Assembly (NCBI GenBank): GCA_964035575.1
Contig: OZ037836.1
Coordinates: forward strand, 1 to 64,000
From: Rhynchopus sp. YZ270_cl-10
Taxonomy: Eukaryota
Direction: 5' to 3'
DNA: 64,000 nucleotides
The position numbers and the translations under genes are program-made. Shown in pieces: positions 1-62,214 of this stretch. A model generated the notes under the pieces. The model was not told the DNA's origin, did no database searches, and saw only the letters and a program-made list of their open reading frames with translations. The first letter of the stretch is position 1, and every line of letters begins with the position of its first letter.

Positions 1-3000
1 TGCGGGTTTGCGGGTTTGCGGGTTTGCGGGTTTGCGGGTTTGCGGGTTTGCGGGTTTGCGGGGTTTGCGGGGTTTGCGGTTTGCGGGTTTGCGGGTTTGC
101 GGGTTTGCGGGTTTGCGGGTTTTGCGGGTTTGCGGGTTTGCGGGTTTGCGGGTTTGCGGGTTTGCGGGTTTGCGGGTTTGCGGGTTTGCGGGTTTGCGGG
201 TTTGCGGGTTTGCGGGTTTGCGGGTTTGCGGGTTTGCGGGTTTGCGGGTTTGCGGGTTTGCGGGTTTGCGGGTTTGCGGGTTTGCGGGTTTGCGGTTTGC
301 GGGTTTGCGGGTTTGCGGGTTTGCGGGTTTGCGGGTTTGCGGGTTTGGGTTTGCGGGTTTGCGGGTTTGCGGGTTTGCGGGTTTGCGGGTTTGCGGGTTT
401 GCGGGTTTGCGGGTTTGCGGGTTTGCGGGTTTGCGGGTTTGCGGGTTTGCGGGTTTGCGGGTTTGCGGGTTTGCGGGTTTGCGGGTTTGCGGGTTTGCGG
501 GTTTGCGGGTTTGCGGGTTTGCGGGTTTGCGGGTTTGCGGGTTTGCGGGTTTGCGGGTTTGCGGGTTTGCGGGTTTGCGGGTTTGCGGGTTTGCGGGTTT
601 GCGGGTTTGCGGGTTTGCGGTTTGCGGGTTTGCGGGTTTGCGGGTTTGCGGGTTTGCGGGTTTGCGGGTTTGCGGGTTTGCGGGTTTGCGGGTTTGCGGG
701 TTTGCGGGTTTGCGGGTTTGCGGGTTTGCGGGTTTGCGGGTTTGCGGGTTTGCGGGTTTGCGGGTTTGCGGGTTTGCGGGTTTGCGGGTTTGCGGGTTTG
801 CGGGTTTGCGGGTTTGCGGGTTTGCGGGTTTGCGGGTTTGCGGGTTTGCGGGTTTGCGGGTTTGCGGGTTTGCGGGTTTGCGGGTTTGCGGGTTTGCGGG
901 TTTGCGGGTTTGCGGGTTTGCGGGTTTGCGGGTTTGCGGGTTTGCGGGTTTGCGGGTTTGCGGGTTTGCGGGTTTGCGGGTTTGCGGGTTTGCGGGTTTG
1001 CGGGTTGCGGGTTTGCGGGTTTGCGGGTTTGCGGGTTTGCGGGTTTGCGGGTTTGCGGGTTTGCGGGTTTGCGGGTTTGCGGGTTTGCGGGTTTGCGGGT
1101 TTGCGGGTTTGCGGGTTTGCGGGTTTGCGGGTTTGCGGGTTTGCGGGTTTGCGGGTTTGCGGGTTTGCGGGTTTGCGGGTTTGCGGGTTTGCGGGTTTGC
1201 GGGTTTGCGGTTTGCGGTTTGCGGGTTTGCGGGTTTGCGGGTTTGCGGGTTTGCGGGTTTGCGGGTTTGCGGGTTTGCGGGTTTGCGGGTTTGCGGGTTT
1301 GCGGGTTTGCGGGTTTGCGGGTTTGCGGGTTTGCGGGTTTGCGGGTTTGCGGGTTTGCGGGTTTGCGGGTTTGCGGGTTTGCGGGTTTGCGGGTTTGCGG
1401 GTTTGCGGGTTTGCGGGTTTGCGGGTTTGCGGGTTTGCGGGTTTGCGGGTTTGCGGGTTTGCGGGTTTGCGGGTTTGCGGGTTTGCGGGTTTGCGGGTTT
1501 GCGGGTTTGCGGGTTTGCGGGTTTGCGGGTTTGCGGGTTTGCGGGTTTGCGGGTTTGCGGGTTTGCGGGTTTGCGGGTTTGCGGGTTTGCGGGTTTGCGG
1601 GTTTGCGGGTTTGCGGGTTTGCGGGTTTGCGGGTTTGCGGGTTTGCGGGTTTGCGGGTTTGCGGGTTTGCGGGTTTGCGGGTTTGCGGGTTTGCGGGTTT
1701 GCGGGTTTGCGGGTTTGCGGGTTTGCGGGTTTGCGGGTTTGCGGGTTTGCGGGTTTGCGGGTTTGCGGGTTTGCGGGTTTGCGGGTTTGCGGGTTTGCGG
1801 GTTTGCGGGTTTGCGGGTTTGCGGGTTTGCGGGTTTGCGGGTTTGCGGGTTTGCGGGTTTGCGGGTTTGCGGGTTTGCGGGTTTGCGGGTTTGCGGGTTT
1901 GCGGGTTTGCGGGTTTGCGGGTTTGCGGGTTTGCGGGTTTGCGGGTTTGCGGGTTTGCGGGTTTGCGGGTTTGCGGGTTTGCGGGTTTGCGGGTTTGCGG
2001 GTTTGCGGGTTTGCGGGTTTGCGGGTTTGCGGGTTTGCGGGTTTGCGGGTTTGCGGGTTTGCGGGTTTGCGGGTTTGCGGGTTTGCGGGTTTGCGGGTTT
2101 GCGGGTTTGCGGGTTTGCGGGTTTGCGGGTTTGCGGGTTTGCGGGTTTGCGGGTTTGCGGGTTTGCGGGTTTGCGGGTTTGCGGGTTTGCGGGTTTGCGG
2201 GTTTGCGGGTTTGCGGGTTTGCGGGTTTGCGGGTTTGCGGGTTTGCGGGTTTGCGGGTTTGCGGGTTTGCGGGTTTGCGGGTTTGCGGGTTTGCGGGTTT
2301 GCGGGTTTGCGGGTTTGCGGGTTTGCGGGTTTGCGGGTTTGCGGGTTTGCGGGTTTGCGGGTTTGCGGGTTTGCGGGTTTGCGGGTTTGCGGGTTTGCGG
2401 GTTTGCGGGTTTGCGGGTTTGCGGGTTTGCGGGTTTGCGGGTTTGCGGGTTTGCGGGTTTGCGGGTTTGCGGGTTTGCGGGTTTGCGGGTTTGCGGGTTT
2501 GCGGGTTTGCGGGTTTGCGGGTTTGCGGGTTTGCGGGTTTGCGGGTTTGCGGGTTTGCGGGTTTGCGGGTTTGCGGGTTTGCGGGTTTGCGGGTTTGCGG
2601 GTTTGCGGGTTTGCGGGTTTGCGGGTTTGCGGGTTTGCGGGTTTGCGGGTTTGCGGGTTTGCGGGTTTGCGGGTTTGCGGGTTTGCGGGTTTGCGGGTTT
2701 GCGGGTTTGCGGGTTTGCGGGTTTGCGGGTTTGCGGGTTTGCGGGTTTGCGGGTTTGCGGGTTTGCGGGTTTGCGGGTTTGCGGGTTTGCGGGTTTGCGG
2801 GTTTGCGGGTTTGCGGGTTTGCGGGTTTGCGGGTTTGCGGGTTTGCGGGTTTGCGGGTTTGCGGGTTTGCGGGTTTGCGGGTTTGCGGGTTTGCGGGTTT
2901 GCGGGTTTGCGGGTTTGCGGGTTTGCGGGTTTGCGGGTTTGCGGGTTTGCGGGTTTGCGGGTTTGCGGGTTTGCGGGTTTGCGGGTTTGCGGGTTTGCGG

Positions 3001-4810
3001 GTTTGCGGGTTTGCGGGTTTGCGGGTTTGCGGGTTTGCGGGTTTGCGGGTTTGCGGGTTTGCGGGTTTGCGGGTTTGCGGGTTTGCGGGTTTGCGGGTTT
3101 GCGGGTTTGCGGGTTTGCGGGTTTGCGGGTTTGCGGGTTTGCGGGTTTGCGGGTTTGCGGGTTTGCGGGTTTGCGGGTTTGCGGGTTTGCGGGTTTGCGG
3201 GTTTGCGGGTTTGCGGGTTTGCGGGTTTGCGGGTTTGCGGGTTTGCGGGTTTGCGGGTTTGCGGGTTTGCGGGTTTGCGGGTTTGCGGGTTTACGGGTTT
3301 GCGGGTTTGCGGGTTTGCGGGTTTACGGGTTTGCGGGTTTGCGGGTTTGCGGGTTTGCGGGTTTGCGGGTTTGCGGGTTTGCGGGTTTGCGGGTTTGCGG
3401 GTTTGCGGGTTTGCGGGTTTGCGGGTTTGCGGGTTTGCGGGTTTGCGGGTTTGCGGGTTTGCGGGTTTGCGGGTTTGCGGGTTTGCGGGTTTGCGGGTTT
3501 GCGGGTTTGCGGGTTTGCGGGTTTGCGGGGTTTGCGGGTTTGCGGGTTTGCGGGTTTGCGGGTTTGCGGGTTTGCGGGTTTGCGGGTTTGCGGGTTTGCG
3601 GGTTTGCGGGTTTGCGGGTTTGCGGGTTTGCGGGTTTGCGGGTTTGCGGGTTTGCGGGTTTGCGGGTTTGCGGGTTTGCGGGTTTGCGGGTTTGCGGGTT
3701 TGCGGGTTTGCGGGTTTGCGGGTTTGCGGGTTTGCGGGTTTGCGGGTTTGCGGGTTTGCGGGTTTGCGGGTTTGCGGGTTTGCGGGTTTGCGGGTTTGCG
3801 GGTTTGCGGGTTTGCGGGTTTGCGGGTTTGCGGGTTTGCGGGTTTGCGGGTTTGCGGGTTTGCGGGTTTGCGGGTTTGCGGGTTTGCGGGTTTGCGGGTT
3901 TGCGGGTTTGCGGGTTTGCGGGTTTGCGGGTTTGCGGGTTTGCGGGTTTGCGGGTTTGCGGGTTTGCGGGTTTGCGGGTTTGCGGGTTTGCGGGTTTGCG
4001 GGTTTGCGGGTTTGCGGGTTTGCGGGTTTGCGGGTTTGCGGGTTTGCGGGTTTGCGGGTTTGCGGGTTTGCGGGTTTGCGGGTTTGCGGGTTTGCGGGTT
4101 TGCGGGTTTGCGGGTTTGCGGGTTTGCGGGTTTGCGGGTTTGCGGGTTTGCGGGTTTGCGGGTTTGCGGGTTTGCGGGTTTGCGGGTTTGCGGGTTTGCG
4201 GGTTTGCGGGTTTGCGGGTTTGCGGGTTTGCGGGTTTGCGGGTTTGCGGGTTTGCGGGTTTGCGGGTTTGCGGGTTTGCGGGTTTGCGGGTTTGCGGGTT
4301 TGCGGGTTTGCGGGTTTGCGGGTTTGCGGGTTTGCGGGTTTGCGGGTTTGCGGGTTTGCGGGTTTGCGGGTTTGCGGGTTTGCGGGTTTGCGGGTTTGCG
4401 GGTTTGCGGGTTTGCGGGTTTGCGGGTTTGCGGGTTTGCGGGTTTGCGGGTTTGCGGGTTTGCGGGTTTGCGGGTTTGCGGGTTTGCGGGTTTACGGGTT
4501 TGCGGGTTTGCGGGTTTGCGGGTTTGCGGGTTTGCGGGTTTGCGGGTTTGCGGGTTTGCGGGTTTGCGGGTTTGCGGGTTTGCGGGTTTGCGGGTTTACG
4601 GGTTTGCGGGTTTGCGGGTTTGCGGGTTTGCGGGTTTGCGGGTTTGCGGGTTTGCGGGTTTACGGGTTTGCGGGTTTGCGGGTTTGCGGGTTTGCAGGTT
4701 TGCGGGTTTGCGGGTTTGCGGGTTTACGGGTTTGCGGGTTTGCGGGTTTGCGGGTTTGCGGGTTTGCGGGTTTGCGGGTTTGCGGGTTTGCGGGTTTGCG
4801 GGTTTGCGGG
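1..4810 (+). repeat. Telomere-like octamer tract (GGGTTTGC)n, ~600 units, G-rich strand on +
   Basis: Near-perfect 8-bp period. Small indels are mostly in the first 1.2 kb. TTTACGGG variants at 3293, 3325, 4494, 4598, 4662 and 4726; TTTGCAGG at 4696. The repeat is certain, telomeric function is inferred. Confidence 0.97.
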
Positions 4811-11700: not shown

Positions 11701-13388
11701 CCGTTTTTTCAAAAAGTTGAAAATTTTGGCCCCCAGGATTGGGTACAGCGTGTACTGAACCCAGATTTTCGAAAAATCTCAACTTTTGAAATTGGTCACT
11801 TATGGCAGCATGTATCTGACACCCAATTTTGACTTTTCCCGTGAATCCATTTTGGTGCATATACACTATCTGGCACCCCTGAGTCCATTGCGGGGTCGTT
11901 TTTCCAAAACGTCGACCGGACTAATACCTAATATGACCCTGGGTATAGCGTACCGTCTCAGAAACACCCCAAAATCAGTGTTTTTGAAGGGTTGTCACAG
12001 CTAAAATCGATGAAAAAATGTCAAAATCACTTTCCCGTGACCCAATAGCGTGAAATATGGCCCATGTGGGCCCCCAGGACCTATAACACCCCCAATCGGT
12101 CGAAACCATGCATATTTTACACCCCCAGATACATGTGCCCATGGGGTGCCAGACCCCAAAATCATGATTTTTTCATGATTTTTGGCCGGATGCACTGACC
12201 AGCAGGGCCATACCGTCTACCGGGGCAACCATATTTTTGAAAACTCGGCCTTGCATAGGGCCCAGTATGTCCCACAGGGTATATTGCCCCAGTATCAGGT
12301 CCCCGCACAAGCCAAACCAATATTTTAAAATTGATTTTTTTGAAAAAAATATTTTTCAAAAAAAATCGTGATTTTTGGGATTTTGGTGATTTTTACAGTT
12401 TTGCACACCCTGAAAATCGGTTTTTTCGGCTCCGCAGGTGAAATATCGACATAATTTAGGTATGTTATGTGCATAATATACCCATTAGAGCCCATTCAAG
12501 TCACATTCCGACCATTTTTCCTGAAAAGGAGCTCCAGTCTCAGTGTCTTGCTGAGATCCCGCCTTAATTCCCGCTACACAATTTCACAGCTCCAGTCTGA
12601 GCGTCTCGCTGAGATCCCGCCTTAATTCCCGCTACACAATTTCACGGCTCCAGTCTGAGCGTCTCGCTGAGATCCCGCCTTAATTCCCGCTACACAATTT
12701 CACGGCTCCAGTCTGAGCGTCTCGCTGAGATCCCGCCTTAATTCCCGCTACACAACTTCACAGTGTCTAGCTGACACCCAGCCTGAGTACCCTCTACAAA
12801 GGTCTGAAGACCACAAAAAACACCCTATTTTTGACCCTGAAAACATGATTTTAGCAAATAGGGCAACTAGTTTGGTGATGCAGCGACCGACTCATGGGCC
12901 CAGTATGTCCAACAGGGCCATATGTTTGGTAAATTGTACCGGGGGCAAGGGGATGTACAAAAAAAAAGTGGATTTTTTACCTTACCAGTAAAAAAATGGC
13001 CAAAAATAGGCCAAAAATGGCCATTTTTCGGCCATGTGACCCCCACAGCAACCCTATATAGACCCCTAAAAACCTAATACTTTTTTCCCAGCGATGTGTC
13101 CTGGGGGCCCTTCGGGCCCCCAGGACACATTGCAACCCCGTTTTTTCAAAAAGTTGGCCCTACGGGCCAACTTTTTGAGGTGGCCTGTAGGGTGACCCCT
13201 TCAAAAAGCTGGAACCCGGATTTTGGGGTCAGGGGTCCGTTTATGCACTTTTATGTATAAAAAAATGTCTGGGGCGAGAAAATGCAAATTTTTGCCTGCA
13301 AACACACTGCATACTACTACAGGACCATATTCCATCTTATCAGGAAAAATTTCGGAGGTGTTAGTCATAAAAACAATTTAAAATTTTT

Positions 13389-13458
13389 GGGGAATAGTCA
13401 GTTATGCCCTACCCTTTTTTTGAAATGGTCAGAGATACCCGAAAATAAGTTCAGATAT
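13389..13458 (+). repeat. MULE left terminal inverted repeat (70 bp)
   Basis: Reverse complement of 19988-20057 with a single G/A difference at TIR position 18. Confidence 0.95.
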
Positions 13459-13655
13459 TGGTCAGAGATACCCGAAAATAAGTTCAGATATTGGTCAGAG
13501 ATGCCCCATTTTCAAAAATAGGGCATAACTGACCAATATCTGAACTTATTTTCGGGTATTTCGGGTATCTCTGACTATTTCTCAACTTATTTTCGGGCAT
13601 GTCTGACCATATCGCCAACTTTTTTCGGGTACCCCAAAAAAGTTGGTTTTCGGGT

Positions 13656-13831
13656 ATACCCAGATACCCAGATACCCAGATACCCAGATACCCAGATACC
13701 CAGATACCCAGATACCCAGATACCCAGATACCCAGATACCCAGATACCCAGATACCCAGATACCCAGATACCCAGATACCCAGATACCCAGATACCCAGA
13801 TACCCAGATACCCAGATACCCAGATACCCAG
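13656..13831 (+). repeat. (ATACCCAG)22 octamer microsatellite in the MULE subterminal region
   Basis: Perfect 8-bp period; the minus strand reads (TATCTGGG)n. Confidence 0.95.
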
Positions 13832-15967
13832 GTCCAGGTACCCAGGAACAGGAAAAAAGTCGTGAAAAAGCAACCACAGCTCCACATGACAAACACAAAA
13901 GTGTCAGTCACGTGGGGCATTCATGCACTGAGGAGATAATGTTCCAACAATTTACAAGAAAGATTACTTAACCTACTGCTGGAAATTGCCAGGTCGTAGT
14001 AACACACAAAGTGTGCCTCCGTTCGGGAAGACCGGATATTCTAGAGACCAAAAAGGACTCAAGAATATCTTCCGGTAGTCAAGGTAGAACCGAGTGAACG
14101 GCCCAAGACCCCCGTGGAGAAGTTAAATGTTGTAATGCTATCAGGTAGAAACTGCGACCACTGTCTTACCCTCCTCAATGCATGGTGGTTGATGTCTTCC
14201 ACAACAAATTTCCTGTACCCAGGTACCCAGGTTCCCAGACCCACGCAGTACCACGTCGCAGTACTACGCAAAATTTACCACCAGACCCTGTCTTCGTGCA
14301 CCTGAAGTACAACGCCGCAGACAGGCCAAACATGCGTTGGACTCAGAGGAATGCCCGCTGTGCAGGTATCATGAGAACCAACTCCCAGCAACAAGGGGCG
14401 CCTTTTGGCGGGCGTTGTTGAGGGTGTTTGGGGTGCAAAGTTTTCCACAATTTTGATGCGCGGGTACAGAAGTGTTATCTTGTTCTTTCATCTCTAAGAA
14501 ATGTAAATGTCAATCGCGTTTAACTACCACTAGGGCTTGTTTAGTGAACCCACGAGGGGTCGAAGGGGGTTGGTTATCCCATATCTATCAAAGGTTGTGT
14601 CGACCAGGCGAATCCACTATGTTACGCTGTATGATGATAAATCCGAAGAAATAACAGTGCATAGCAACTGCAGGAAGTTTGTTAAAAAGAGTGCCTCACG
14701 CTACACAAACCACCACCCGCGATTGACTTAGATGTTATAACAAAGAGAATTCAGAACAAAACAACACCCTGCCCCATACACACTAAATTGTCATGCTTCA
14801 AGAACATGCCTGGGCCAAAATTACTGTGACAAAAAGGCAACAAGACCCACAAGGAGTGTGAATTGTGCACTGGTTTTCTGGGGGAACAAGCAATATTTTC
14901 TCGTGTCTAGTCCTCCGCAAGCAGAGGACAGACTTTCCGGAAGGTTTCCAAAGTCGAATTTCTTGCACTAGCTATGCTCCCTGGGTTAATGGCTATAGCA
15001 GTGACTGACAGAGTGTTCCCACCCCCCTTTCCACCCCATATGTTCGCTCGTTCTGCACAGTTGGTTCTCGATGTTGCACTCATTGCGATACCTGTTTAAA
15101 AGTGAATTTGTGAGTGGTGGGGAAATTAAAGAAGGTAACTTCTGAAAAAAATAAGTTGGCCTGAGGGTGTAAAGAGACTTTTGGAGGGAATACGAGTTGA
15201 CAGCTTTCAGGGCCGAGCAGCATATCTAATATATTATGCACAAAATGACCCCTTATCGGATTCGTCCTAGGGTAAGACACCATGAGGTGGAGGGACACAC
15301 AATGAGGCAGGACAAGATAAAGATAGACGTGCAAGGGATGGCGTAGGAGTAGACGGCCTTGACGCAGGAACGAAGAGGTCCAGCATCCAGTGTACTGTAC
15401 AGCAGTACACATACATATGCACAATCAAACGAGAAGGGCATAAAAGATACATAAAAGATACATAAAAGATAGCCAAAATGGAGGCGCTTCTGCTTAACGG
15501 TACACTGCTAGAGCAGCAAAAAAATACGGACGTCAAAGCGAAAAAAACAACAACAAAGATGGAAAGGGATGCGAAACAGAAGGTTTAAATACGTGTTTTT
15601 ATTTTTTTTTATTGATAAATTGATGACGTGTAGACAACTCCGAACGAAAATAAATTGATTGGAAGGGGGGTAGGGTTGAGTCATACCTAAACAGCAAACC
15701 CATCAGTCAGTAGCTTCTAATCAGCGAAAATGGGTACTACGAAATTGGGTATTAGAAAAACCGAAAAAAAACAGAGGGGGCCTCAGGGGAGGGGTCTCTC
15801 GTTTTTTTTAGCCTGGTCGGGGTCATGTCTCTCTCTGATAGCGTTCTTTTTTCATTCAGCATGTTTTGATTGGGAGTGGGTTGTGCAAGCGAAGCAAGGC
15901 TCTGGGGTATTGGAAAAGAAAAAAAAAGAAAAGTTTGGTAATGGTTTTTGCTGTTGTTTCAAATCAT

Positions 15968-18900
15968 TCAAATCATAGTATTCGCTTTCGCACGGATTCT
16001 GTCAGCAATGTCTGTTTTTTTCCCCCCTTGCCCCAGTTTTCTTTGTCTGGCTTCAGCTTTCAATAGCTTCGCCGACAATGCTACGAGCTTTGTCACTCGG
16101 AAGGGTTGATACACCCGGACACGCTCTTCAGGGTTTCCAGGGTTTTCTACAAAACAGATTTCCAAAACATCTGCCTCACTTTCAAACTCTTGTTCAAGAT
16201 TATCAGTATCTTTGACAATATATTTGCCATTCTCTGTCCGAAGCGCAACAATCCAATGTGTGTTGTCTCCATCTTGTGGAGGACCAAATAAAATAGTCTC
16301 CTCATCTGGACAAGGGACCAACCCCCAGTGAGTAACCCTAAGGCCCTTACTCAAACACAAATTTGCAATGGCGTTAAAAGTAAAATATCCCCCATCCATC
16401 ACATTTTCGTGAGTGGCAGAAACGACCCTCGACAACGCATTGCTCAACATGCTCTGGGCATGTATCGCCAGCGAGTAGGGGATACGCTCTTCATCATAGT
16501 GCGTGAACAACCAGTTGCAGGCCGCCCACGCACATTCCCCCTCCACCCTCCCTTCCCCAGAAATAAGATGCTTGCTCACTGGGATCCGAATGTCCGGGTC
16601 TCCAGACAACTGAGCGTGTTCCTCGTCCCCCGCACTTTCATTTTCTACCCCCTTTGTTTTGTTTTCTTTTTTCCCCCCTCCGTTTTTTTTTTTTTGTTCC
16701 TCTAGCCACCACCCGGGGATCACGTTGTTGCAAATACGCTTTCCCCGGTACGTGGCAGCGTGCCCCCTCAGGCCGCACCGCGAACACTGCTTCTCGCGTT
16801 CGCCAACACACAGAATTTTCCTTTTTTTTTTGGGGGCTCCGCGGGGGTTCGCATCGTTCAGCATAGGCTGAAGACCCGTGTCCGGGAGGTCAATGAGGTC
16901 CTCGGGGACGGTCGCTGATTCAACAATCAGGTACAGGTTCCTCAGGGACTCCATTTTTAAAAATGGAGCTACACACGACATGGGGTCGTGTGTAGTGTTG
17001 CGGTCGGGTCTGTTCTCATTTGCGGCGCACAGCAAATGCGAGCATGGGAGGCCCTCGAGAGATGGGCGTCGGCACGTGCATGTGTTCTCCGCCGTGTTCA
17101 CTGTGAAAGGAGCGCCACCATCCTCCATCACCTCCACCACGTCCTCCACTTGCGTGGGGGTACATACCAGCCTTCGTGACTTCTCGATGGAATTCTCAAG
17201 GAGAGTGCGGTGAGCAGGGTCGGTCAGTCGCTCAAGTCCAGTAGCTGGGGGTACGTCCTATTTGTGTTTTGTTTTTGTTTTGTTTTTGTTCAGGAAAAAA
17301 TGTTGGAGTAATACCTGCAGTTCGGCACTCCTCGTGGCGAACCACTCCATGGTGATTCTGCGCCATGCCACGTGGAGTGATATCACTCCCTTGCTGCGTG
17401 CCTCCAGGAGAGCCGCATTCATGCATTCACTAGCATTTTGCGTGTACTCTCCGCACCTGTAGCCAACAATGTGGCAGTCCGCCCATCGGTCCTTCACTGA
17501 CCGCAGGGCTTGCACCAACCTAGGGTGCCTACGCTCCACGTCCTGCAGCGCCGCCTCCAGCCCCTCGGCGGTCTTCTCCTTCGCCAGCCGAAACACCTCA
17601 CCCGAGACCGCTGACCGCTTCCCCGCCGCCGCAGCTCCCCCGCTCAGGTTGCCGGCAAGGTGCTTGACACAAGCAGCCGAGCAAGCATCCGGGAACGCAC
17701 TGTCGAGTTCGACACCAAGACCTAATAATGGTGTATGCGTGTGTGGAGAGTATAAGAAGAGAGGGGTATACCTTTTAACCTATCAGATATGATAAGCTCA
17801 CCGTCTACTCTGCCAAACGCTGCCACAAAGTGCTGAGAAAAATATCTCCAGCAGCTTGTGTCCTCTTGCTTACAAAATGTAATTGCAAGTGGAACGACTC
17901 TGCGCTGCGCGTCTTTCGTCACTGCAATGAGCAGTGTACCCACAATGGGTCCTGTGAGGTGACATCCATCGAGAAAGATCACGGGAAGACAGAAAGGAAA
18001 AGCCCGAATGGCCTGTGGCAAGGCAACAAACGAGCGAAGGAAGTGCTCCACTGGGGCCTGTCCTTCGGGGGCGCGGTTCTCCTTCTCCAAGTGCGTGAAC
18101 GCACCTTCGTTGGCCGCCGCCAGACGGAGGAGGTACTCGGGGAATTGCCCGAATTCCTTCACCATGTCCCCCGAGACCACCTCTTCTGCCTTCCGCTTCA
18201 TCCGCTGTGCCGTGCTCTGAGACACGGCCACACCACTCTCCCTCCGAAGAGAGGACTTGGCGTTCACAGCGGACTTAGCCCCCGCCAGAGTGGACGGTTT
18301 CTCGGCAGCAAGGAAGGCACTTATGCCGTGCTGCGTGGAGGCGGTGGTGGAGGTGCAAGTGTGCTTGCCGACTTTGTTAACTCTCACACCCCCCTCTGAT
18401 CCCAGCTTGGGCCCCGCGGTCACCTTCCACTGACAAGTAACTTCCGCACAGATCCACGTAGCGCGACCACCCTCACGGCGCTTCACTGTGAAGGTCCACC
18501 CCCTCTCCAAGCCGTGCCGCCGCATGGCATCCCTGACAGCGTCGAGCGAGTCATGCTCAGACCCGACTGCGTACGCTGCTGCCAGAGGGCAGGGAGCGGT
18601 CGTGGCTGCTGCTGCTGTTGATGCTGCTGCTGGCTGAGGCTGAGGTGGCAGTGAAGTTGCTGGCGGCAGTGAAGGAGGTGGGGGCAGTGAAGTTGCCGGT
18701 GGCAGTGAAGATGTTGTCGGCAGTGAAGATGTTGGTGGCAGTGAAGATGTTGGTGGCAGTGAAGTTGCTGGTGGGGGCGGTGGGGCTGACGTGTTACACA
18801 TGTCCTGAGGGGCTGAGTGCGTGAAGGGCGGCTGGGGGACTGGCTGCATGAAGTGGGAGTGGGGGTAGGGGGCTGGAGAGTGAGGTTGGAAGAACGAGTA

Positions 18901-19020
18901 TCTGTACGATACCGCTACTCCTGCCAACAACTCCGCCCTGAGCGACTGGAATTCCGCGTCGCTCAGATTACCCGAGCGATGATGGGCCACAAGCTCACTA
19001 AGTCTATCTAAGCTGGACAT
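15968..19020 (-). CDS. MULE (MuDR-like) transposase, 3 exons (19020-17772, 17721-17315, 17257-15968), 981 aa; SHOCT-like / Pro-rich / MuDR DBD / DDE / SWIM / Zn-knuckle / Josephin-like / SAP-like
   Basis: GT-AG introns 17771-17722 (50 nt) and 17314-17258 (57 nt) join three ORFs in frame. Motifs: DBD WICAEVTCQWKV...KHTC; DDE residues in FLDGCHL, ISDRLKG and TQNASE; CxxH in CVKH; SWIM CTC...GLPCSH; knuckle CSRCGLRGH. Additional in-frame introns cannot be excluded. Confidence 0.88.
18650..18775 (-). repeat. 18-bp coding minisatellite giving (SLPP[A/T][T/S]) repeats in the transposase linker
   Basis: About six to seven copies of the GGCAGTGAAG core at 18-bp spacing, in frame in exon 1. Confidence 0.8.
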
Positions 19021-19453
19021 ATTTTTTTTACTCGGGGATCTCCCTTATTTTTTTTTCTTCTGTGCGGAGGCATGGATGGGGCGGGAGGGGGCTGGCCTCT
19101 GGCTAAGGGCAAAAATTGGCCTTGGGAGCGGGGTGGGGGTCTTTGCGGGTCTTGTACGAAGTCTTGAGGGGGAGTGCAATGAGGTAGAACCGACACATTT
19201 TAATAGTGTAATCGCGCAGCAGAACCGAAACACGCACGTCATGCAATACAGCAGAAACATATTTGATGGTGCAATCCGCGCAGCAAAAGCCCGCAGGGCC
19301 AAAAAAAAGGGGGGGAGTGTCTTGGTACCCGAATTTCTAGTACCATTTAGGATAATACCCAGGGCATAATACATTATCCTAAATTATTTTTGTACTTTTG
19401 TTTTTCTGACTTTTTTTCATTTCAATATCTGTAACCTCTACACGCTTTTACAG

Positions 19454-19603
19454 CAGGTTTGAGGTGATACTTCCGGCCGGAGGGCTGAGGAAGGGCATTC
19501 TTTTTTTCTCTGTGTGTTTGTTTTTTTGTTAGGTTTGAGGTGATACTTCCGGAGGGCTGAGGAAGGGCATTCTTTTTTTTCTCTGTGTGTTTGTTTTTTT
19601 GTT
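19454..19603 (+). repeat. ~76-bp tandem duplication upstream of the transposase gene
   Basis: AGGTTTGAGGTGATACTTCCG...GAGGGCTGAGGAAGGGCATTC(T)nCTCTGTGTGTTTG(T)nGTT occurs twice. Confidence 0.8.
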
Positions 19604-19987
19604 GTAGACTTTTCGGTATTGTGCGCCCCATTATACTCCCCCAAGATTGCCTCACGCTACACAAACCACCACCCACGACTCAAAAACGCGTTTTAGACCC
19701 CTAGAAAGGCCCAAAACCGCTCAATTCTTGCTGGAATTGAAAAATTGGGCACTTTTAGGGTATGACCAAAAAAAATTTCGAGAGTTCAGTTAGCACAGAG
19801 GCGCACCTTAGAAGGGCAAAAAATAGTGGATTTGGGGTACCCACTTTTTTGGGGTACCCAAAAAAGTGGGTACCCCAAATAAGTTCAGAGATGCCCGAAA
19901 AAAGTTCAGATATACCCGAAAATAAGTTCAAATACCCGAAAATAAGTTCAGATATAGTCGGTTATGCCCTATTTCTGGTTTTCGGGT

Positions 19988-20057
19988 ATATCTGAACTTA
20001 TTTTCGGGTATCTCTGACCATTTCAAAAAAAGGGTAGGGTATAACTGACTATTCCCC
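19988..20057 (-). repeat. MULE right terminal inverted repeat (70 bp)
   Basis: Ends ...ATAACTGACTATTCCCC and is followed by the TSD. Confidence 0.95.
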
Positions 20058-23000
20058 AAAATTTTTTGAAAAAACATGAGATCTGGATAAAAGTTTTGAC
20101 TGTACCTGTGGAAGGTGGGATTTTGCCTGTGTTTTGACTTTTTTTTTCAGTAAATAAACTTCTACTCATCTCCGGAGGCCGTCCGAGGTCGCAATTAACT
20201 CATTTTGACAATTTAGGGCCATATACCGCCCGTTTTTTCAAAAAGTTGAAAATTTTGGCCCCCAGGATTGGGTACAGCGTGTACTGAACCCAGATTTTCG
20301 AAAAATCTCAACTTTTGAAATTGGTCACTTATGGCAGCATGTATCTGACACCCAATTTTGACTTTTCCCGTGAATCCATTTTGGTGCATATACACTATCT
20401 GGCACCCCTGAGTCCATTGCGGGGTCGTTTTTCCAAAACGTCGACCGGACTAATACCTAATATGACCCTGGGTATAGCGTACCGTCTCAGAAACACCCCA
20501 AAATCAGTGTTTTTGAAGGGTTGTCACAGCTAAAATCGATGAAAAAATGTCAAAATCACTTTCCCGTGACCCAATAGCGTGAAATATGGCCCATGTGGGC
20601 CCCCAGGACCTATAACACCCCCAATCGGTCGAAACCATGCATATTTTACACCCCCAGATACATGTGCCCATGGGGTGCCAGACCCCAAAATCATGATTTT
20701 TTCATGATTTTTGGCCGGATGCACTGACCAGCAGGGCCATACCGTCTACCGGGGCAACCATATTTTTGAAAACTCGGCCTTGCATAGGGCCCAGTATGTC
20801 CCACAGGGTATATTGCCCCAGTATCAGGTCCCCGCACAAGCCAAACCAATATTTTAAAATTGATTTTTTTGAAAAAAATATTTTTCAAAAAAAATCGTGA
20901 TTTTTGGGATTTTGGTGATTTTTACAGTTTTGCACACCCTGAAAATCGGTTTTTTCGGCTCCGCAGGTGAAATATCGACATAATTTAGGTATGTTATGTG
21001 CATAATATACCCATTAGAGCCCATTCAAGTCACATTCCGACCATTTTTCCTGAAAAGGAGCTCCAGTCTCAGTGTCTTGCTGAGATCCCGCCTTAATTCC
21101 CGCTACACAATTTCACAGCTCCAGTCTGAGCGTCTCGCTGAGATCCCGCCTTAATTCCCGCTACACAATTTCACGGCTCCAGTCTGAGCGTCTCGCTGAG
21201 ATCCCGCCTTAATTCCCGCTACACAATTTCACGGCTCCAGTCTGAGCGTCTCGCTGAGATCCCGCCTTAATTCCCGCTACACAATTTCACGGCTCCAGTC
21301 TGAGCGTCTCGCTGAGATCCCGCCTTAATTCCCGCTACACAACTTCACAGTGTCTAGCTGACACCCAGCCTGAGTACCCTCTACAAAGGTCTGAAGACCA
21401 CAAAAAACACCCTATTTTTGACCCTGAAAACATGATTTTAGCAAATAGGGCAACTAGTTTGGTGATGCAGCGACCGACTCATGGGCCCAGTATGTCCAAC
21501 AGGGCCATATGTTTGGTAAATTGTACCGGGGGCAAGGGGATGTACAAAAAAAAAGTGGATTTTTTACCTTAAAAAAATGGCCAAAAATAGGCCAAAAATG
21601 GCCATTTTTCGGCCATGTGACCCCCACAGCAACCCTATATAGACCCCTAAAAACCTAATACTTTTTTCCCAGCGATGTGTCCTGGGGGCCCTTCGGGCCC
21701 CCAGGACACATTGCAACCCCGTTTTTTCAAAAAGTTGGCCCTACGGGCCAACTTTTTGAGGTGGCCTGTAGGGTGACCCCTTCAAAAAGCTGGAACCCGG
21801 ATTTTGGGGTCAGGGGTCCGTTTATGCACTTTTATGTATAAAAAAATGTCTGGGGCGAGAAAATGCAAATTTTTGCCTGCAAACACACTGCATACTACTA
21901 CAGGACCATATTCCATCTTATCAGGAAAAATTTCGGAGGTGTTAGTCATAAAAACAATTTAAAATTTTTTGAAAAAACATGAGATCTGGATAAAAGTTTT
22001 GACTGTACCTGTGGAAGGTGGGATTTTGCCTGTGTTTTGACTTTTTTTTCAGTAAATAAACTTCTACTCATCTCCGGAGGCCGTCCGAGGTCGCAATTAA
22101 CTCATTTTGACAATTTAGGGCCATATACCGCCCGTTTTTTCAAAAAGTTGAAAATTTTGGCCCCCAGGATTGGGTACAGCGTGTACTGAACCCAGATTTT
22201 CGAAAAATCTCAACTTTTGAAATTGGTCACTTATGGCAGCATGTATCTGACACCCAATTTTGACTTTTCCCGTGAATCCATTTTGGTGCATATACACTAT
22301 CTGGCACCCCTGAGTCCATTGCGGGGTCGTTTTTCCAAAACGTCGACCGGACTAATACCTAATATGACCCTGGGTATAGCGTACCGTCTCAGAAACACCC
22401 CAAAATCAGTGTTTTTGAAGGGTTGTCACAGCTAAAATCGATGAAAAAATGTCAAAATCACTTTCCCGTGACCCAATAGCGTGAAATATGGCCCATGTGG
22501 GCCCCCAGGACCTATAACACCCCCAATCGGTCGAAACCATGCATATTTTACACCCCCAGATACATGTGCCCATGGGGTGCCAGACCCCAAAATCATGATT
22601 TTTTCATGATTTTTGGCCGGATGCACTGACCAGCAGGGCCATACCGTCTACCGGGGCAACCATATTTTTGAAAACTCGGCCTTGCATAGGGCCCAGTATG
22701 TCCCACAGGGTATATTGCCCCAGTATCAGGTCCCCGCACAAGCCAAACCAATATTTTAAAATTGATTTTTTTGAAAAAAATATTTTTCAAAAAAAATCGT
22801 GATTTTTGGGATTTTGGTGATTTTTACAGTTTTGCACACCCTGAAAATCGGTTTTTTCGGCTCCGCAGGTGAAATATCGACATAATTTAGGTATGTTATG
22901 TGCATAATATACCCATTAGAGCCCATTCAAGTCACATTCCGACCATTTTTCCTGAAAAGGAGCTCCAGTCTCAGTGTCTTGCTGAGATCCCGCCTTAATT

Positions 23001-51145: not shown

Positions 51146-54100
51146 TCATGGGCCCAGTATGTCCACAAACCCGCAAACCCGCAAACCCGCAAACCCGCAA
51201 ACCCGCATTTCACCCTCATCATACCTCTCTGTGTTTAAGACAAACTCTGTGCTCTGCCCTGTAGTACCTTCAGGAGGAGTGGGGAGCCCAAGATCTTCCA
51301 TTGAAGTCTTAACGTTCGCTTCCTTAAGGAGCCGTTGCATGTCTAGCAAAGCTTTACGCTTCTCTTTAGGGTAGATGTGGTTGCTTGGTACTGCTTCCTC
51401 CCGTTCCTGCCTTTTTACTCTGTCCAAAGGTGGCGCACACAGCTCAAACTCATACTCTGCCCACGCCTTTGCAACGTCTTCTGCAGTGGTCATGTAGTTT
51501 ATTATTATCATTGCAAACGTAAAACGGATGGCACGTGAGGACAGTGTTGTATTGATGCACTCTTTCAGGGCGTTACGCAAGATTGCCCCATCATGGATAA
51601 GCCCCATTTCTGCTGCAGCTGCATAAAATGTAGGATGAACAACGGAGCCTATGGTTCTCAGCTCTTCAAAGCTGCATGATCCACGCTTGCACAGAAGAAG
51701 TAGACGGAGACAGTGCAACTCCTTATCCTTTACAGGGGCCCAGTACATCCTGCCGATTGAGAGGCCTTCTCCTTCATTTCTTTTTGAGTGAGGGCCAGGT
51801 TTATAGCAGCCTTCTTCCTCGCACCACCCATATCCCGGTCTCAGCTGCCATTCCTTCTTTTCTCTGGGGTAAGAAAAGAATTCTGGGACATCATTGTAAA
51901 GTAGTTTGTCAAAGCCTTTGTAGGCTTCATGTGCTGGAATGCCTTCACGATGCTTCTTGCATCTTTCATTTGCTTCGAAAAAGGCAAGGAGTGTACTTTT
52001 GGATTTTGCAGCCGCATCCCTTCTCCTTGAGTCATCACCATAATTCTTTAAAGGAAAGTACACCCTCTGCTCATCTTCGAGGTGGATGTGGAGTCTCTGC
52101 ACTCCTGGGTAAATCCGCACCATCTTTGTTCCGAGTAGGTACCCACAAGCATCAGCCGCAGTCAAACAATGTGCCTTCAGAAACCTCATAATGCTCCCAG
52201 TGGTCGTGGTCGTTGTTGTGGTTTTTGCTTCTGATGGCCCTCCTTTATGCTTTGTATCTTCCTTTATCACACCATCTACCTCATTCTCCCCCTTGAATAA
52301 GTATTTGAACAAATATTTAGCAGCAAGAATCCCGCGCACTGCCTCAATGTTGATGTGGCACTGGTACTTGAGGAGAAGATACGCATTGTAGGGAACCACC
52401 CACCTGTTGTTCCTCTGGTTTGGGTGAGTAGTTTCCCCTGGGTGTTTTTCTTTCCATTTCTTCACAACGTCTGGATCCACATAAGACAGTATCCCATGAT
52501 CCCTTCTTATGACAAAGGCGTAGCCATCATTGCCAGAGGTGGTGAAATCTCTGAAGTCCTTGGGGAAGTTGGACTTGCAATATTTGCACTTTCCATCCTT
52601 TCCCTTCTGTAGACAGGGAGAGCCTCTATTTTTAAGGCAGTCATTGTGCATGAGGTACTCGCTTACAGCTTTGTAGAGGTTAGGATGTGTTTCTGGGTCC
52701 GGGAGCTCAGCATGCACGATGTGGTCGATGTTGAACGGGTCCTTAGGTGACGTTTTATTGTTGTTCCAAAGGATTGCGTGGCAGTGAGGGAGCCCTCTCT
52801 TCTGGTACTCGGTCACCATCACCATTGCAATATTTTGTCCAAGAACATTCTTTTTGCGTATGTCGTCCACAAGTTCCTTGACTTTTAAGTCGAACACACG
52901 GTGAACAAGCTCCGGACGGTCGAGGGCCGTTTCTCCTTCGAGAAGATTGGATTGTATCTCCTCCCACATCGGGTTGCATGTCATTGTGAGAAAGAAATCA
53001 GCTTTCCCATACTTTGCGTATATTGCAAGTGTGTCGTTGAGTAATTGTGCCCTCGCAGCTACTCCTCTCTCAAATGAAGAAGGCATAGAGATTTCGTTTG
53101 TCGGTGGAATCTGTTTCCCAGAGGTGATGTCTTTCTTGGAGGCGTAGCCCATTCCCCTTCCAACAATATGGTATTTCAGTCGCTGATACATGCCACGCAT
53201 CGCCATGTCGATGAAGAACTGCTGTGTCAGCGTTCCATGCATGAGCAGGGGGTTGTAGGACAACGGGTCTTTGCTGCTGTTCGGACGGTGGTGCATGAGA
53301 TATGTTGCGTACTGCTTTGCTGAGATGAATGTTGAAGATGGTGTCGTTTCAGCTAGGTTAGTAGCGTTGCGAAGAACCTCATGCATTGAGTCCACAGCTC
53401 TGTCTTCTTCTGCACAACGTTCCCATCCACCATTCCACTCTTCAGGGTCTACCTGCATCGCATCATCCTTTTCACCGCTGTTGAGCGCTTCAGGGTTTGG
53501 TGCTGTTGGTTCAGGGTTGTTCGTGTTTTGGGCATCATCATCATCATCATCATCACTGTCAGATGCAGCTCCGCGGTTCACCACCCTGTGAGGCATCTTC
53601 AGGCGGAACCCATTATTCTCGGTGGGATTCAGATGGGCTAATGGATATGAAAGCAGTTCATAGAGTTGGTTAAAGTCATCAATGATGATTGGTGCGTTCC
53701 ACTTTGGATCCTTACCCCCATTTTCAGCACACGTAAACATTGGGTACACAGTAAATTTGCGCTCTGCAGGTGCGGCTTCATCGATGGTGTAGAACATCTT
53801 AACAGCACCCTTTGCCTCATCGGTTGTATATTCTGACCCTGTCTTGCTTGCCAGGACTTCATGGAAGTCAATCCTCATCTTCTTCAGCTCATCCTCGCGA
53901 CCCTTATACTGCTGTGAAATTGCTTTGAACTTTGCTGCAAATGCATTGTCTCCAAGAAGAAGATGACACTTCTCAGCAAGACCAAGAAGATTGTCAGGGA
54001 GGACCCCTCCAGTCATGCTTTTTTTATTGTCTGTGCTGCTGACGTTTGGATCAACAAACCAGGACTCTGTGAGAGCATCGTCATAAAAGCCATTGAATTT

Positions 54101-56071
54101 TTTTAATCCCCTACCTTCCAGAGCCACTGCTGAGAAGCCCTTTGGCACACGGCTGTCTCGGCGGATTTTGTTCTCTACCATCGCGAAGAATGCGTTCAGC
54201 TGAATTGAAACCCTTTTGTAGAATTTGTCCTGAAGAAGTTCAAGGTGGTCTTGGCTGATTATTTTGGGCATATCTGGCAGGGACACCTTTCCACCAGTGC
54301 AGCATATTTTTGATGACTCTCCACGAAACAGCAATGCCCCGCAATGCTTGCAGGGTTTGTCCATCTCTCCGCATGAGTGCTTCTTAATGCTGTCATCCAC
54401 CTCTTCGCGCAGTGCTGCCCCCAGGTGCCGGTAGGTGAATATTTTTTTGACTCCCTGTCTCTGCAGCTTTCTGTTTAGATCAGCTCTTTGTTCCTCAACA
54501 ATACTGCTCTGTTTTTCCATCTGAAACTCTGCTTCGTGAAACAGGGTCCCAGACATGTATTTTGCCTCTGACTGTACAACGTCAAAATCAGCTTTGGAAT
54601 GTTTCTCTATAAGCTCCCCCATGAGGTTCTGCTCTTTGATCATGAGCTCCTTGAGGTTTCTTATTTGCCGTGCACTCCATATAGACTTTGCTTCCTCCAC
54701 AGAAGCTGGGTCGAACACCATTTTTGACATTGGGTCCACGTTTCTCAGCGTAACAAAACTGGCCTCATGCTCAAGCAAAAAAATCCTAGCTTTAACCTCC
54801 TCAAGCTCATCAAGTTTGGTATACGTCTGCTGCCTTTTTGTTTCAAGTGACTTTAGCTTTCTGAGATCCCATTTTTTTTGCATGATGTCGACCACACAGT
54901 CGTTGAAGGTGTGAGATTTTGGTTTGTTGTCCTTAATCAAGGGAACATTTATGTGTGACCACAGCAGCACTTTTTGGAACCTTAGCAGATTATCCTGTGT
55001 GGCATAGTATGGCCTTGAAGAAGTCCTTAACGCCGAAATGCGAAATACTTCAGCTGAATGGAACAGCCAGGAAAATAACGGCGGTGTGTAATCGTTGAAG
55101 TCAAAGTACTGGGGAAGTTCTATGGCTGCCAAACACAAAACTGCTGCAACACTAGCAGACAGTGCAGGTGTTATAGCACTCACATTCTCCTTTTGTAACT
55201 CTCTCTCATCCTGTCCAAGCAAAATGTATGAAAGATAGTCCATTTTGCAATTGAGAGTTTTGAACCTCAGGCAGTATTGTGTGATGTGTTTCAGTAGAAT
55301 ATTTACCTCTGCAAACTGTGCATAGCAGTACGGACATGTTTTTTCGCAGGTTGCTGCATGTGATTTCATGTTTTTAACCTCGGTGAATTCTTCCCCACAG
55401 TGCTCACAGCAAAGTTTTCCTAAGCACGCATGATTTTCCTTCTGTGCCTGCAGAGGTGATGAAAAACTGCGCCTACAAAGAGTACAGGCAGGTTGACATT
55501 TTTTCAGATGCTCCGTCAATTTGTGAATACGTTTGTATGTAGCATCGCAATTAGGACATTTGAAACGGCCGTCTGAAGTCTTATCCAGTTTTTGCTTCTT
55601 GGGGGGTGGCACATCAGGAGTAGAAGGTGCTTCCTGAGGAGAAGGAGTAGAAGGTGCTTCCTGAAACCCACCTGTGCAGCCCTTCTGATGATTGTGCCTC
55701 TCAAGGAAATTAGAAAACGTAATTCTGCACTTTGGACACGTTTTTTTGCATTTTTTTGAGCCTTTTTTGTGTGCTTTGAGCTGTTTATCTACTGCAAAGC
55801 TGGCACCACAGTTTTCACAAATGAAAGGTTTCTGCTCCTGCGCACTTCTTGGTTCATCATCTCCCCTCTTCCGTTTTGTACTGCATTCTACTGTTGTAGG
55901 TTCATTGCGCTCATCTTCTGTTTTTTCCTTTTCTTCATCATCCTCTCCAGTCTGTTTTTGAAAAGCTTCTGTATCATCTTCTTCTGCCTCCTGTGTTGCT
56001 TCTTTTGTTGTCTTAGGCTTTTTGTCAGCACGCCCATCCGCAGACCCGCTCTCACTACGTTGCCTTTTCAT
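51146..56071 (-). pseudogene. Helitron RepHel ORF, open but 3'-truncated: zinc fingers and HUH Rep present, Pif1 helicase absent
   Basis: Six C2HC/C2H2-type fingers; Helitron motif CKHCGALLFRGE...CCTGG; Rep motifs FFLTMTCNP, EYQKRGLPHCH and YLFKYLFKG; pre-helicase segment LLDMQRLL...MEDLGLPTP. No Walker A follows; the frame runs through the octamer tract into the array. Likely ATG at 56071 (MKRQR), ORF open to 56158. Confidence 0.92.
51166..51207 (-). repeat. Five octamer repeats in inverted orientation, (GCAAACCC)5, at the array/Helitron junction
   Basis: gtcca|CAAACCCG...CAAACCCGCA|tttcaccc. The array unit normally continues gtccaACAGGG. Confidence 0.95.
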
Positions 56072-57300
56072 ATTATTTATGCCATGTGTTCCTATGCTAA
56101 TGTATGTGAAGAAAGAAGGAATCTGGGAAACAATGTGAATAGAAATATTAATTCTCATTAAACTCTCTTTCGTTTTGGGGAAGTGTTTCCCTCTTCAGCT
56201 TATGTTGTCTTTGTATTAGCCTTCTTATTAGTGTGCCCATCATCAGATCTTTCCTCGCTTTCGTTGTCTTTTCATTTTTTTTTTTGCAAAAAGTAAAGTA
56301 CCCAGACCACTGTTATGTTAGTTTTGAATAGTTGTGATAAATTGCTAGAAATTGTATTGTAGAAAATATAAAATGGTGGGTGGGAGAAAGTTTTGAGTTT
56401 TCAAGAAGGAAAATAAAAAAGTCTCACAACTAAGTTTTCAAAAAAAAATAATTAAAAAATGATCTTGAAAATTTTGACAAAAATTAAAACCAATCTGCAT
56501 GTGCATTAAAAAAAGGGGAACCCATATTTTTGCGCAGGAAGAAGTAATTTGCACATTCTCTGCGATAAGAAATACCCCCAAACGAAAAAAAAAAATTATT
56601 CTCTAATGATGTGCTTTATTGTGCTGGAAAAGAGCACCTTTGTGTTGAAATTCCCTTCCCCTCCAAGTACTAGAGCATTCGTGAGCATAACACGTCTTTG
56701 CTATTTTTTCGTCTTCTGCTGCTTCGCGCTTTCTCTTTCTGTCTAGCTCCTGTTGAGTTTGAGTTGTTGAAAGTGATACTTGAAAAGTTGATACATACCT
56801 TTTTCATGTCCTGACACAGAAGGAACACTTCGTTCAGCTGTTTCTTGAGATCTGAGACAGTCTGTTTCACCTCTTTCAGCTCTTCAGTCACTGAGGAAAA
56901 GCTTTCTGCAGAAACAGGAATTTCCAATGCTGCGGCCTGTTCTGACGGAAGCACAGAGTCCTTCTGAGTTTGCTCCTCTGTTTTAACGCCTTGCTCCTGT
57001 ACCTTCGTTAGTACTGTCTCCTTCTTCTGGGAGCACACTGGAATTGGTGGCAATTCCTCATTCTCATGAGGAGCTTGATCCTGCACATTGAACACCGCCA
57101 ACATGCTTGGTGCATCTTTCTTCTGCACAAAGGGCACTGGCTTCCGCTTAATCTTCATGGTGTTCATAGTTTTTTGAGAAATAGTTCACCTGTTTTTGGT
57201 GTGTGAGTACAAAAGTGCTATGAAAAGAGAAATGAGGGGTGAGCCAAGTTTAATTCATTTTTCTATTCAATTTTTTCGGCATTCACATTTGTAAAAATGC
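51208..57300 (-). mobile_element. Helitron fragment (5' part); termini not identified
   Basis: RepHel ORF plus a co-oriented small gene. The left boundary is the truncation; the right boundary is approximate. Confidence 0.65.
56603..57167 (-). CDS. Small coiled-coil plus C-terminal C2H2 zinc-finger protein, 2 exons (57167-56799, 56749-56603), 171 aa
   Basis: A 49-nt intron (AAG|GTATGT...AACAG|GAG) gives exon 2 ELDRKRKREAAEDEKIAKTCYAHECSSTWRGREFQHKGALFQHNKAHH*, with C-x4-C...F-x5-L-x2-H-x3-H. Exon 1 has the heptad stretch VTEELKEVKQTVSDLKKQLNEV. Confidence 0.72.
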
Positions 57301-57377: not shown

Positions 57378-57908
57378 TGCGGGTTTGCGGGTTTGCGGGT
57401 TTGCGGGTTTGCGGGTTTGCGGGTTTGCGGGTTTGCGGGTTTGCGGGTTTGCGGGTTTGCGGGTTTGCGGGTTTGCGGGTTTGCGGGTTTGCGGGTTTGC
57501 GGGTTTGCGGGTTTGCGGGTTTGCGGGTTTGCGGGTTTGCGGGTTTGCGGGTTTGCGGGTTTGCGGGTTTGCGGGTTTGCGGGTTTGCGGGTTTGCGGGT
57601 TTGCGGGTTTGCGGGTTTGCGGGTTTGCGGGTTTGCGGGTTTGCGGGTTTGCGGGTTTGCGGGTTTGCGGGTTTGCGGGTTTGCGGGTTTGCGGGTTTGC
57701 GGGTTTGCGGGTTTGCGGGTTTGCGGGTTTGCGGGTTTGCGGGTTTGCGGGTTTGCGGGTTTGCGGGTTTGCGGGTTTGCGGGTTTGCGGGTTTGCGGGT
57801 TTGCGGGTTTGCGGGTTTGCGGGTTTGCGGGTTTACGGGTTTGCGGGTTTACGGGTTTGCGGGTTTGCGGGTTTGCGGGTTTGCGGGTTTGCGGGTTTGC
57901 GGGTTTGC
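57378..57908 (+). repeat. Internal (GGGTTTGC)n tract, ~66 units
   Basis: Perfect octamers with TTTACGGG variants at 57835 and 57851. Confidence 0.97.
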
Positions 57909-61996: not shown

Positions 61997-62214
61997 TGCG
62001 GGTTTGCGGGTTTGCGGGTTTGCGGGTTTGCGGGTTTGCGGGTTTGCGGGTTTGCGGGTTTACGGGTTTGCGGGTTTACGGGTTTGCGGGTTTGCGGGTT
62101 TGCGGGTTTCGGGTTTGCGGGTTTGCGGGTTTGCGGGTTTGCGGGTTTGCGGGTTTGCGGGTTTGCGGGTTTGCGGGTTTGCGGGTTTGCGGGTTTGCGG
62201 GTTTGCGGGTTTGC
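61997..62214 (+). repeat. Internal (GGGTTTGC)n tract, ~27 units
   Basis: Variants at 62062 and 62078; same immediate flanks as the 57378 tract. Confidence 0.97.

Follow-up and report, generated by a model that had tools for sequence, protein, structure and literature searches.

The locus considered here raises the question of whether a DNA transposon can carry a Josephin-type cysteine protease as a part of its own transposase and, if so, what such a protease would be likely to cut. It is situated in a window of 64,000 nucleotides, by which we mean the whole stretch of DNA analysed. The original prediction was that a Mutator transposase is fused there to an ataxin-3-like Josephin domain.

The element and its predicted transposase

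A MULE/Mutator element is expected to lie between TIRs and to be flanked by a TSD of 8-11 bp, and this is what we observe at 13389-20057, where the element interrupts one unit of an 1851-bp tandem array. The exact empty site is present in 20 other units of this array. Thus, the ends, the identical TSD and the empty site indicate a recent, precise insertion of the Mutator type. At the left end, a looser TIR likeness (71%) extends to approximately position 13647. The features of the element and of the predicted gene are as follows.

13389..20057, no strand: complete Mutator-like element, 6669 bp, delimited by its ends, the TSD and the empty site
13380..13388, no strand: left TSD, 9 bp
20058..20066, no strand: right TSD, 9 bp, identical to the left TSD
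13389..13462, plus strand: left TIR, about 74 bp, one mismatch
19984..20057, minus strand: right TIR, about 74 bp
17772..19020, minus strand: predicted exon 1, Pro/Ser-rich N-terminus first
~18570-18415, minus strand: MuDR DNA-binding domain, in exon 1 (PF03108, E 5.5e-4, just below the cut-off)
Exon 1, minus strand: putative DDE residues Asp351 (17970) and Asp413 (17784), assigned by motif
17722..17771, minus strand: predicted intron 1, 50 nt, GT-AG, restoring the frame
17315..17721, minus strand: predicted exon 2, with CxxH (C434, H437)
Exon 2, minus strand: putative catalytic Glu515 (17428)
17258..17314, minus strand: predicted intron 2, 57 nt, GT-AG, including an in-frame stop
15968..17257, minus strand: predicted exon 3, from SWIM to the stop, one open frame of 429 aa
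17030..17098, minus strand: SWIM zinc finger (PF04434, E 8.7e-4, 19.2 bits against a cut-off of 19.6)
16730..16786, minus strand: zinc knuckle, C710 to C728, aligned with relatives P0004 and P0007
16148..16600, minus strand: predicted Josephin-fold cysteine-protease-like domain
15992..16063, minus strand: weak SAP-like DNA-binding end (PF02037, E 0.02-0.05)

The predicted protein of 981 aa is assembled from three minus-strand frames joined by two short GT-AG introns, has no internal stop, and comprises, in this order, the MuDR DNA-binding domain, the MULE core, the SWIM finger, the knuckle, a basic linker, the protease-like domain and the weak SAP-like end. Its assignment as a Mutator transposase is borne out both by the TIRs with the 9-bp TSD and by the MULE-type domains: we observe a DDE transposase with CxxH, SWIM and knuckle (PF10551, PF03108, PF04434), the core reaching E 4.8e-6 and 27.4 bits on PF10551 against a cut-off of 27.6; this score comes from exon 1 alone, where the model is incompletely represented. 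The closest long relative without the protease-like domain, P0007, itself scores above the Pfam MULE cut-off and matches the transposase at blastp E 2e-63.

The in-frame fusion held up as well. The three motifs that had been quoted from the region after SWIM and knuckle all lie in one minus-strand frame, 17257-15968, and the triad codons are situated exactly where they had been placed (Cys TGT 16534-16532, His CAT 16258-16256, Asp GAT 16210-16208), corresponding to C794, H886 and D902 in the spliced model. As SWIM, knuckle and domain share this single frame, the fusion of the domain to those parts is independent of splicing; both predicted intron junctions are also spanned by the alignments with P0004 and P0007. 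One more candidate intron, in frame at 16737-16645, was rejected, since it would delete a knuckle Cys that is kept in P0004 and P0007. In short-read contigs from runs X1 and X2, which may be the source sample, four overlapping pieces cover 15900-17255 with zero differences or gaps, hence the frame is not a long-read artefact. GC3 is 0.63-0.70 in the transposase core against 0.48 in the domain.

The domain family and its likeness to Josephins

A phmmer search of 1.84 billion representative proteins with exon 3 as the query yielded 55 matches, 9 of which have their best stretch in the domain, with a top E of 2e-22. Two of these, P0002 (777 aa) and P0004 (864 aa), unite MULE, SWIM and the domain in a single ORF, both scoring below the cut-off on Pfam MULE, and the other seven domain relatives are fragments of 72-247 aa without context. 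In one fragment, P0008, the end of the domain is followed by a clear SAP (E 2e-11). In P0004, residues 740-864 form an acidic stretch and histone-H1-like basic repeats after the domain, in place of SAP, and may be a different DNA tether in the same position. P0003, where Arg replaces the Cys and the sequence breaks off, is a decayed relative and was excluded from the family alignment, which consists of the window sequence and the remaining eight.

Pairwise identity across this alignment is 22-43%. Among the rows covering each column, the Cys is conserved in 7/7 and the His, the Trp and the Asp in 8/8 each, so that the proposed Cys-His-Asp triad is invariant in the homologues where it is covered. 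The Trp, W887 (16255), directly follows H886 and is in the place of the aromatic gatekeeper; the residues invariant in this family in particular are a Pro, Glu-Cys, Trp and Asp-Thr. The domain had been placed at 16145..16570; this location is right, but the start lies a little earlier, the conserved residues beginning at P778 (~16582).

The window protein and P0002 share 39% identity in the domain and only 20% in the core, whereas P0007, with 31% core identity, has no such domain, and hence the transposase core does not need it. Together with the drop in GC3, these values hint that MULE lineages acquired or exchanged the domain as a module, although the core tree lacks the strength to show this.

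Searched as a single sequence, the domain has no match to Pfam Josephin (PF02099), nor do its nine relatives, and no NCBIfam family matches it. PDB sequences gave no match to the domain, even with the family profile, word-index protein searches with the domain, with exon 3 and with the DDE core had no result, and locus searches with the domain gave no match in genome, viral or metagenome contigs. For the control sets, 118 Josephin loci from metagenome contigs were reduced to 43 (full-length, below 80% identity, all matching PF02099), which were chosen on the N-terminal motif, so that invariance of this motif within the set is forced. From 120 C39 loci we retained 73, of which 43 are in the profile, and C39_2 and C70 sets were also built; none of 151 genomes yielded a DUF261 set.

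On the Josephin HMM the domain scores 5.7 bits, exceeding 4999 of 5000 shuffles, and on the rival HMMs 6.1 bits (C39_2) and 4.2 bits (C39); true C39-like proteins reach 5.5 bits on the Josephin HMM. Single sequences scored by HMM do not tell Josephins from C39-like proteins, and the domain alone does not rise above a generic papain fold. When 31 giant-virus Josephins are added to the Josephin profile, the domain scores 8.8 bits and is exceeded by 2 of 100 non-Josephin controls. On the single sequence, hhalign discriminated better: the value for Josephin is 27.4 and extends over 105 columns, while the other families reach 15-22 over 19-26 columns. In the global mode Josephin scores 19.7; the highest control values are 8.0 for 100 non-Josephin papain domains and 10.8 for 72 shuffles.

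It could be argued that the Josephin likeness is over-read, and that the domain is C39-like or an independent papain-fold family. ESM Atlas places it as a papain-type protease with C39, DUF261, C39_2 and C70 as neighbours, Josephin being absent among the 30 named matches, and this would suit such a reading, as would the lack of a Pfam match and, from the analyses below, Foldseek E-values above 0.001 and a long branch that sets the family apart from all sampled Josephins. The Cys-to-His spacing of 92 speaks against it, adjoining the range of the Josephin control set (93-127) and lying above that of C39 (68-83), and so do the profile and structural comparisons.

By hhalign, the family profile matches the 43 Josephins with prob 95.3 (E 2e-8, 130 columns), against 6.1 for C39, 5.9 for C39_2 and 0.5 for C70, which are the only three rival families compared as profiles and give no whole-domain match; the match to giant-virus Josephins is weak (prob 29.6). 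The same contrast is seen without the window sequence (Josephin 94.2, others at most 14.3), and the best of 40 column shuffles of the family profile reaches prob 0.9. Over 1844 ORFs of the fetched loci, a set enriched for Josephins (157 present), 63 of the 65 matches to the family HMM are Josephins. The putative triad, invariant within the family, aligns in register with the Josephin Cys-His-Asn/Asp.

The AlphaFold model built from nine family rows, with no Josephin input, has pLDDT 76 and pTM 0.76, with the Cys at a helix start and the His and Asp on adjacent strands; the single-sequence model has pLDDT 40, and structure searches with it were uninformative (BpJOS at rank 8, E 0.26). With the family model, Foldseek gives TM 0.52-0.57 for ataxin-3/ATXN3L and 0.53 for BpJOS, and among the matches listed the TM of a non-Josephin is never above 0.43; no match reaches E 0.001, and the first rank by E-value is a USP-like DUB with TM 0.37. 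Realignment of the top 999 Foldseek chains, which re-examines those chains and is not an independent search, places Josephins at ranks 1-9 (Z 9.5-7.5). The best structure is 3o65 (Z 9.5, rmsd 3.3, 132 aligned), and the first non-Josephins, VTD (Z 7.3) and then C39 (Z 7.1), follow the lowest Josephins by less than 1. In BFVD, no match is found at E 0.001, and a viral Josephin is at rank 4. A Josephin-type papain fold is predicted, as had been proposed, by the AlphaFold model and the structural matches, and given the profile and structural ranks an over-read likeness seems to us highly improbable.

Membership in the Josephin family proper is a different matter. Of the N-terminal signature His-Glu-x-Gln ... 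Cys-x-x-His-x-x-Asn-Asn, the window keeps only the Glu, the Cys and one Asn. The Gln five residues before the Cys, which is the oxyanion residue in ataxin-3, is absent in 7/7 rows covering the position, with mostly Arg instead. In trees that leave out three fragments and the bacterial Josephins, and where the C39 outgroup is attached by long branches, the family is situated on its own long branch and joins the ataxin-3 side with support 90 (unstarred). As the N-terminal signature including the Gln is missing and the scores are below the Pfam model, we class this as a Josephin-like sister family, and neither as a member of PF02099 nor as a recent capture of a typical ataxin-3. Thus, the fold part of the Josephin claim stands by prediction and family profile, while Pfam membership and the N-terminal signature do not.

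The loss of the Gln from all rows covering it could also mean that this papain-fold domain has another chemistry (acyltransferase, deamidase) or is a non-catalytic ubiquitin-binding module, which we consider improbable. In the available text of PMC7391069, a CE-clan protein with the aromatic motif is an acetyltransferase, although this example belongs to another clan, and invariance of the full triad at 22-43% identity argues against a dead domain.

Related systems and the proposed function

The predicted fold is like that of the eukaryotic Josephin DUBs (ataxin-3, ATXN3L, JOSD2; PF02099; MEROPS C86; 3o65, 1yzb, 6pgv). Common to both are the Cys-His-Asp/Asn order, the His-Trp, a Gly-x-Phe helix start and an Asn six residues after the Cys. 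However, identity is 11-22%, the domain scores below their Pfam model and, unlike them, it lacks the His-Glu-x-Gln start and the His at +3, has Trp for the second Asn, and is fused to a transposase. The bacterial Josephin-like DUBs/clippases have a divergent Josephin fold (BpJOS 9f5t, Z 8.6; PaJOS 9g7g, 8.2; PcJOS 9fn4, 7.6) and are likened to our domain by structure and spacing: the Cys-to-His spacing is 97 in BpJOS against 92 here, and the His-to-Asp spacing of 16 is the same as that given for bacterial Josephins in the available part of 10.1101/2024.07.24.604956. They are secreted effectors, unlike the transposase-fused domain; the available sections of PMC10643670 describe them as able to be slow or to miss mono-ubiquitin probes, and those of 10.1101/2024.07.24.604956 as able to clip ubiquitin.

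That some MULEs carry Ulp1-like or OTU proteases, as had been stated, agrees with the accessible portions of PMC2836005 (Ulp1 in Mutator and Ginger1, OTU in Ginger1 and Helitrons) and with a table in those of PMC6446971, where a MuDR group has OTU. In the same portions of PMC2836005 the word Josephin has 0 occurrences, nor is it mentioned in the accessible text of PMC6431247. MULE/MuDR and Ginger1 transposases have a papain-type ubiquitin/SUMO protease-like domain at the C-terminus, as here, their class being Ulp1 or OTU, whereas ours is Josephin-like. Dualen non-LTR elements and Chlamys-1_cBra have a Josephin-like domain on a transposon protein, as in our case, but they are retroelements and not DDE DNA transposons, and are likened to the present family by description. 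Kojima and Fujiwara 2005 is reportedly the primary source for the Dualen domains. The part of PMC8557442 at hand describes Josephin-like domains for Dualen and a weak case for the Penelope-like element Chlamys-1_cBra, so that the claim of no known Josephin-transposase fusion survives for DNA transposases but not beyond them. No report of a MULE-Josephin fusion was found in the literature searched, a search outside which most subscription papers, Repbase reports and supplements fall, and a Josephin-like protease on a DNA transposase is apparently undescribed. A tested precedent for active transposon DUBs is given by the Helitron VTDs, which cut K48/K63/K11 chains (PMC9741609, available sections); VTD is a transposon-encoded papain-fold enzyme, as here, and the first non-Josephin structural match, but of a different DUB class and from a different transposon superfamily.

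In our view, the predicted single protein of this intact Mutator-like transposon probably ends in a Josephin-fold protease, which likely cuts ubiquitin or a ubiquitin-like tag at Gly-Gly. C794, H886 and D902 would form the catalytic triad, and W887 is predicted to exclude residues other than glycine from the position preceding the scissile bond. That the cut would fall at a Gly-Gly end is suggested by the nearest structures and by the His-Trp motif, since His-aromatic marks Gly-Gly-cleaving enzymes in the part of PMC7391069 at hand; C39 enzymes also have His-aromatic, hence the motif is no proof of a ubiquitin substrate. The transposase and the SAP-like end would keep the protease at transposase-bound DNA, where it might strip degradation tags off the transposase, or repair or silencing tags off nearby chromatin. 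The domain takes the C-terminal slot used by Ulp1 or OTU in other Mutator and Ginger transposases.

Alternatively, an active Josephin-fold protease could have a non-ubiquitin substrate, processing its own transposase polyprotein or cutting a host restriction factor; we regard this as unlikely, though deserving some weight. Polyprotein processing is common among papain-fold enzymes, the basic linker contains a Gly run 49 residues upstream of the Cys, other residues stand in place of the Josephin N-terminal signature, and C39-type double-glycine peptidases are the nearest language-model neighbours; on the other hand, every one of the nearest solved folds is that of a ubiquitin-directed enzyme. 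Self-cleavage at a conserved Gly-Gly ahead of the domain found no support, as the three fused proteins have no such position in common (-49 and -9 in two of them, and none within 120 residues in the third), and self-processing is hence less likely.

On the favoured reading of a ubiquitin-directed protease, the range of proteases at the C-terminus of Mutator transposases grows by one class, and a small Josephin-like family is defined that has no annotation and is missed by Pfam. Transposons have repeatedly taken up ubiquitin/SUMO proteases that are unrelated to one another, which suggests that the host may oppose transposition through ubiquitin. The present copy is intact and was inserted recently, and its compact domain of 150 aa is readily assayed. 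A bolder version, which we hold to be quite improbable, is that the domain belongs to an undescribed branch of the Josephin clan that is carried by transposons, has a rebuilt oxyanion site (conserved His/Gln-12, Glu-1, Arg-5) and is exchanged as a module among distant Mutator lineages. In this version it would act as a DNA-tethered eukaryotic ubiquitin clippase, after which host chromatin marks could not be ubiquitinated again.

Relatives and surroundings of the element

Contigs that are 84-94% alike in patches (16035-16097, 16415-16492, 16742-16872, 17399-17585, 18034-18362) suggest that the same runs contain one or more diverged sister elements; the patches reach the protease helix and the SAP-like end, with none at 80% around the Cys and His. 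Unlike the gene, the non-coding ends of the element (13850-15100 and 19550-20057) match variant contigs in public runs by the thousand; these are likely to be non-autonomous relatives forming a large family. The element also contains a 36-bp direct repeat (14687-14722 and 19643-19678), 22 copies of an 8-bp unit at its left end (13656-13831), and, where the Pro/Ser/Thr-rich N-terminus is encoded, a repeat of 18 bp (18644-18774).

The array itself (4811-51165) is a homogeneous 1851-bp tandem repeat with 58-bp sub-repeats. One 8-bp telomere-like repeat occurs in both orientations at 1-4810, 51166-51205, 57378-57908 and 61997-62214: the window start (1-4810) has 602 G-rich copies, the far array end has about five C-rich copies, and the two further tracts are internal. 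A Helitron frame of 1682 aa (51146-56194, minus strand) comprises C2H2 fingers and a Rep part (PF14214, E 1e-34); its score on the Josephin HMM was taken as chance, the His being absent. This frame ends in the C-rich repeat, without the helicase part, and its end looks like a break healed by telomere addition.
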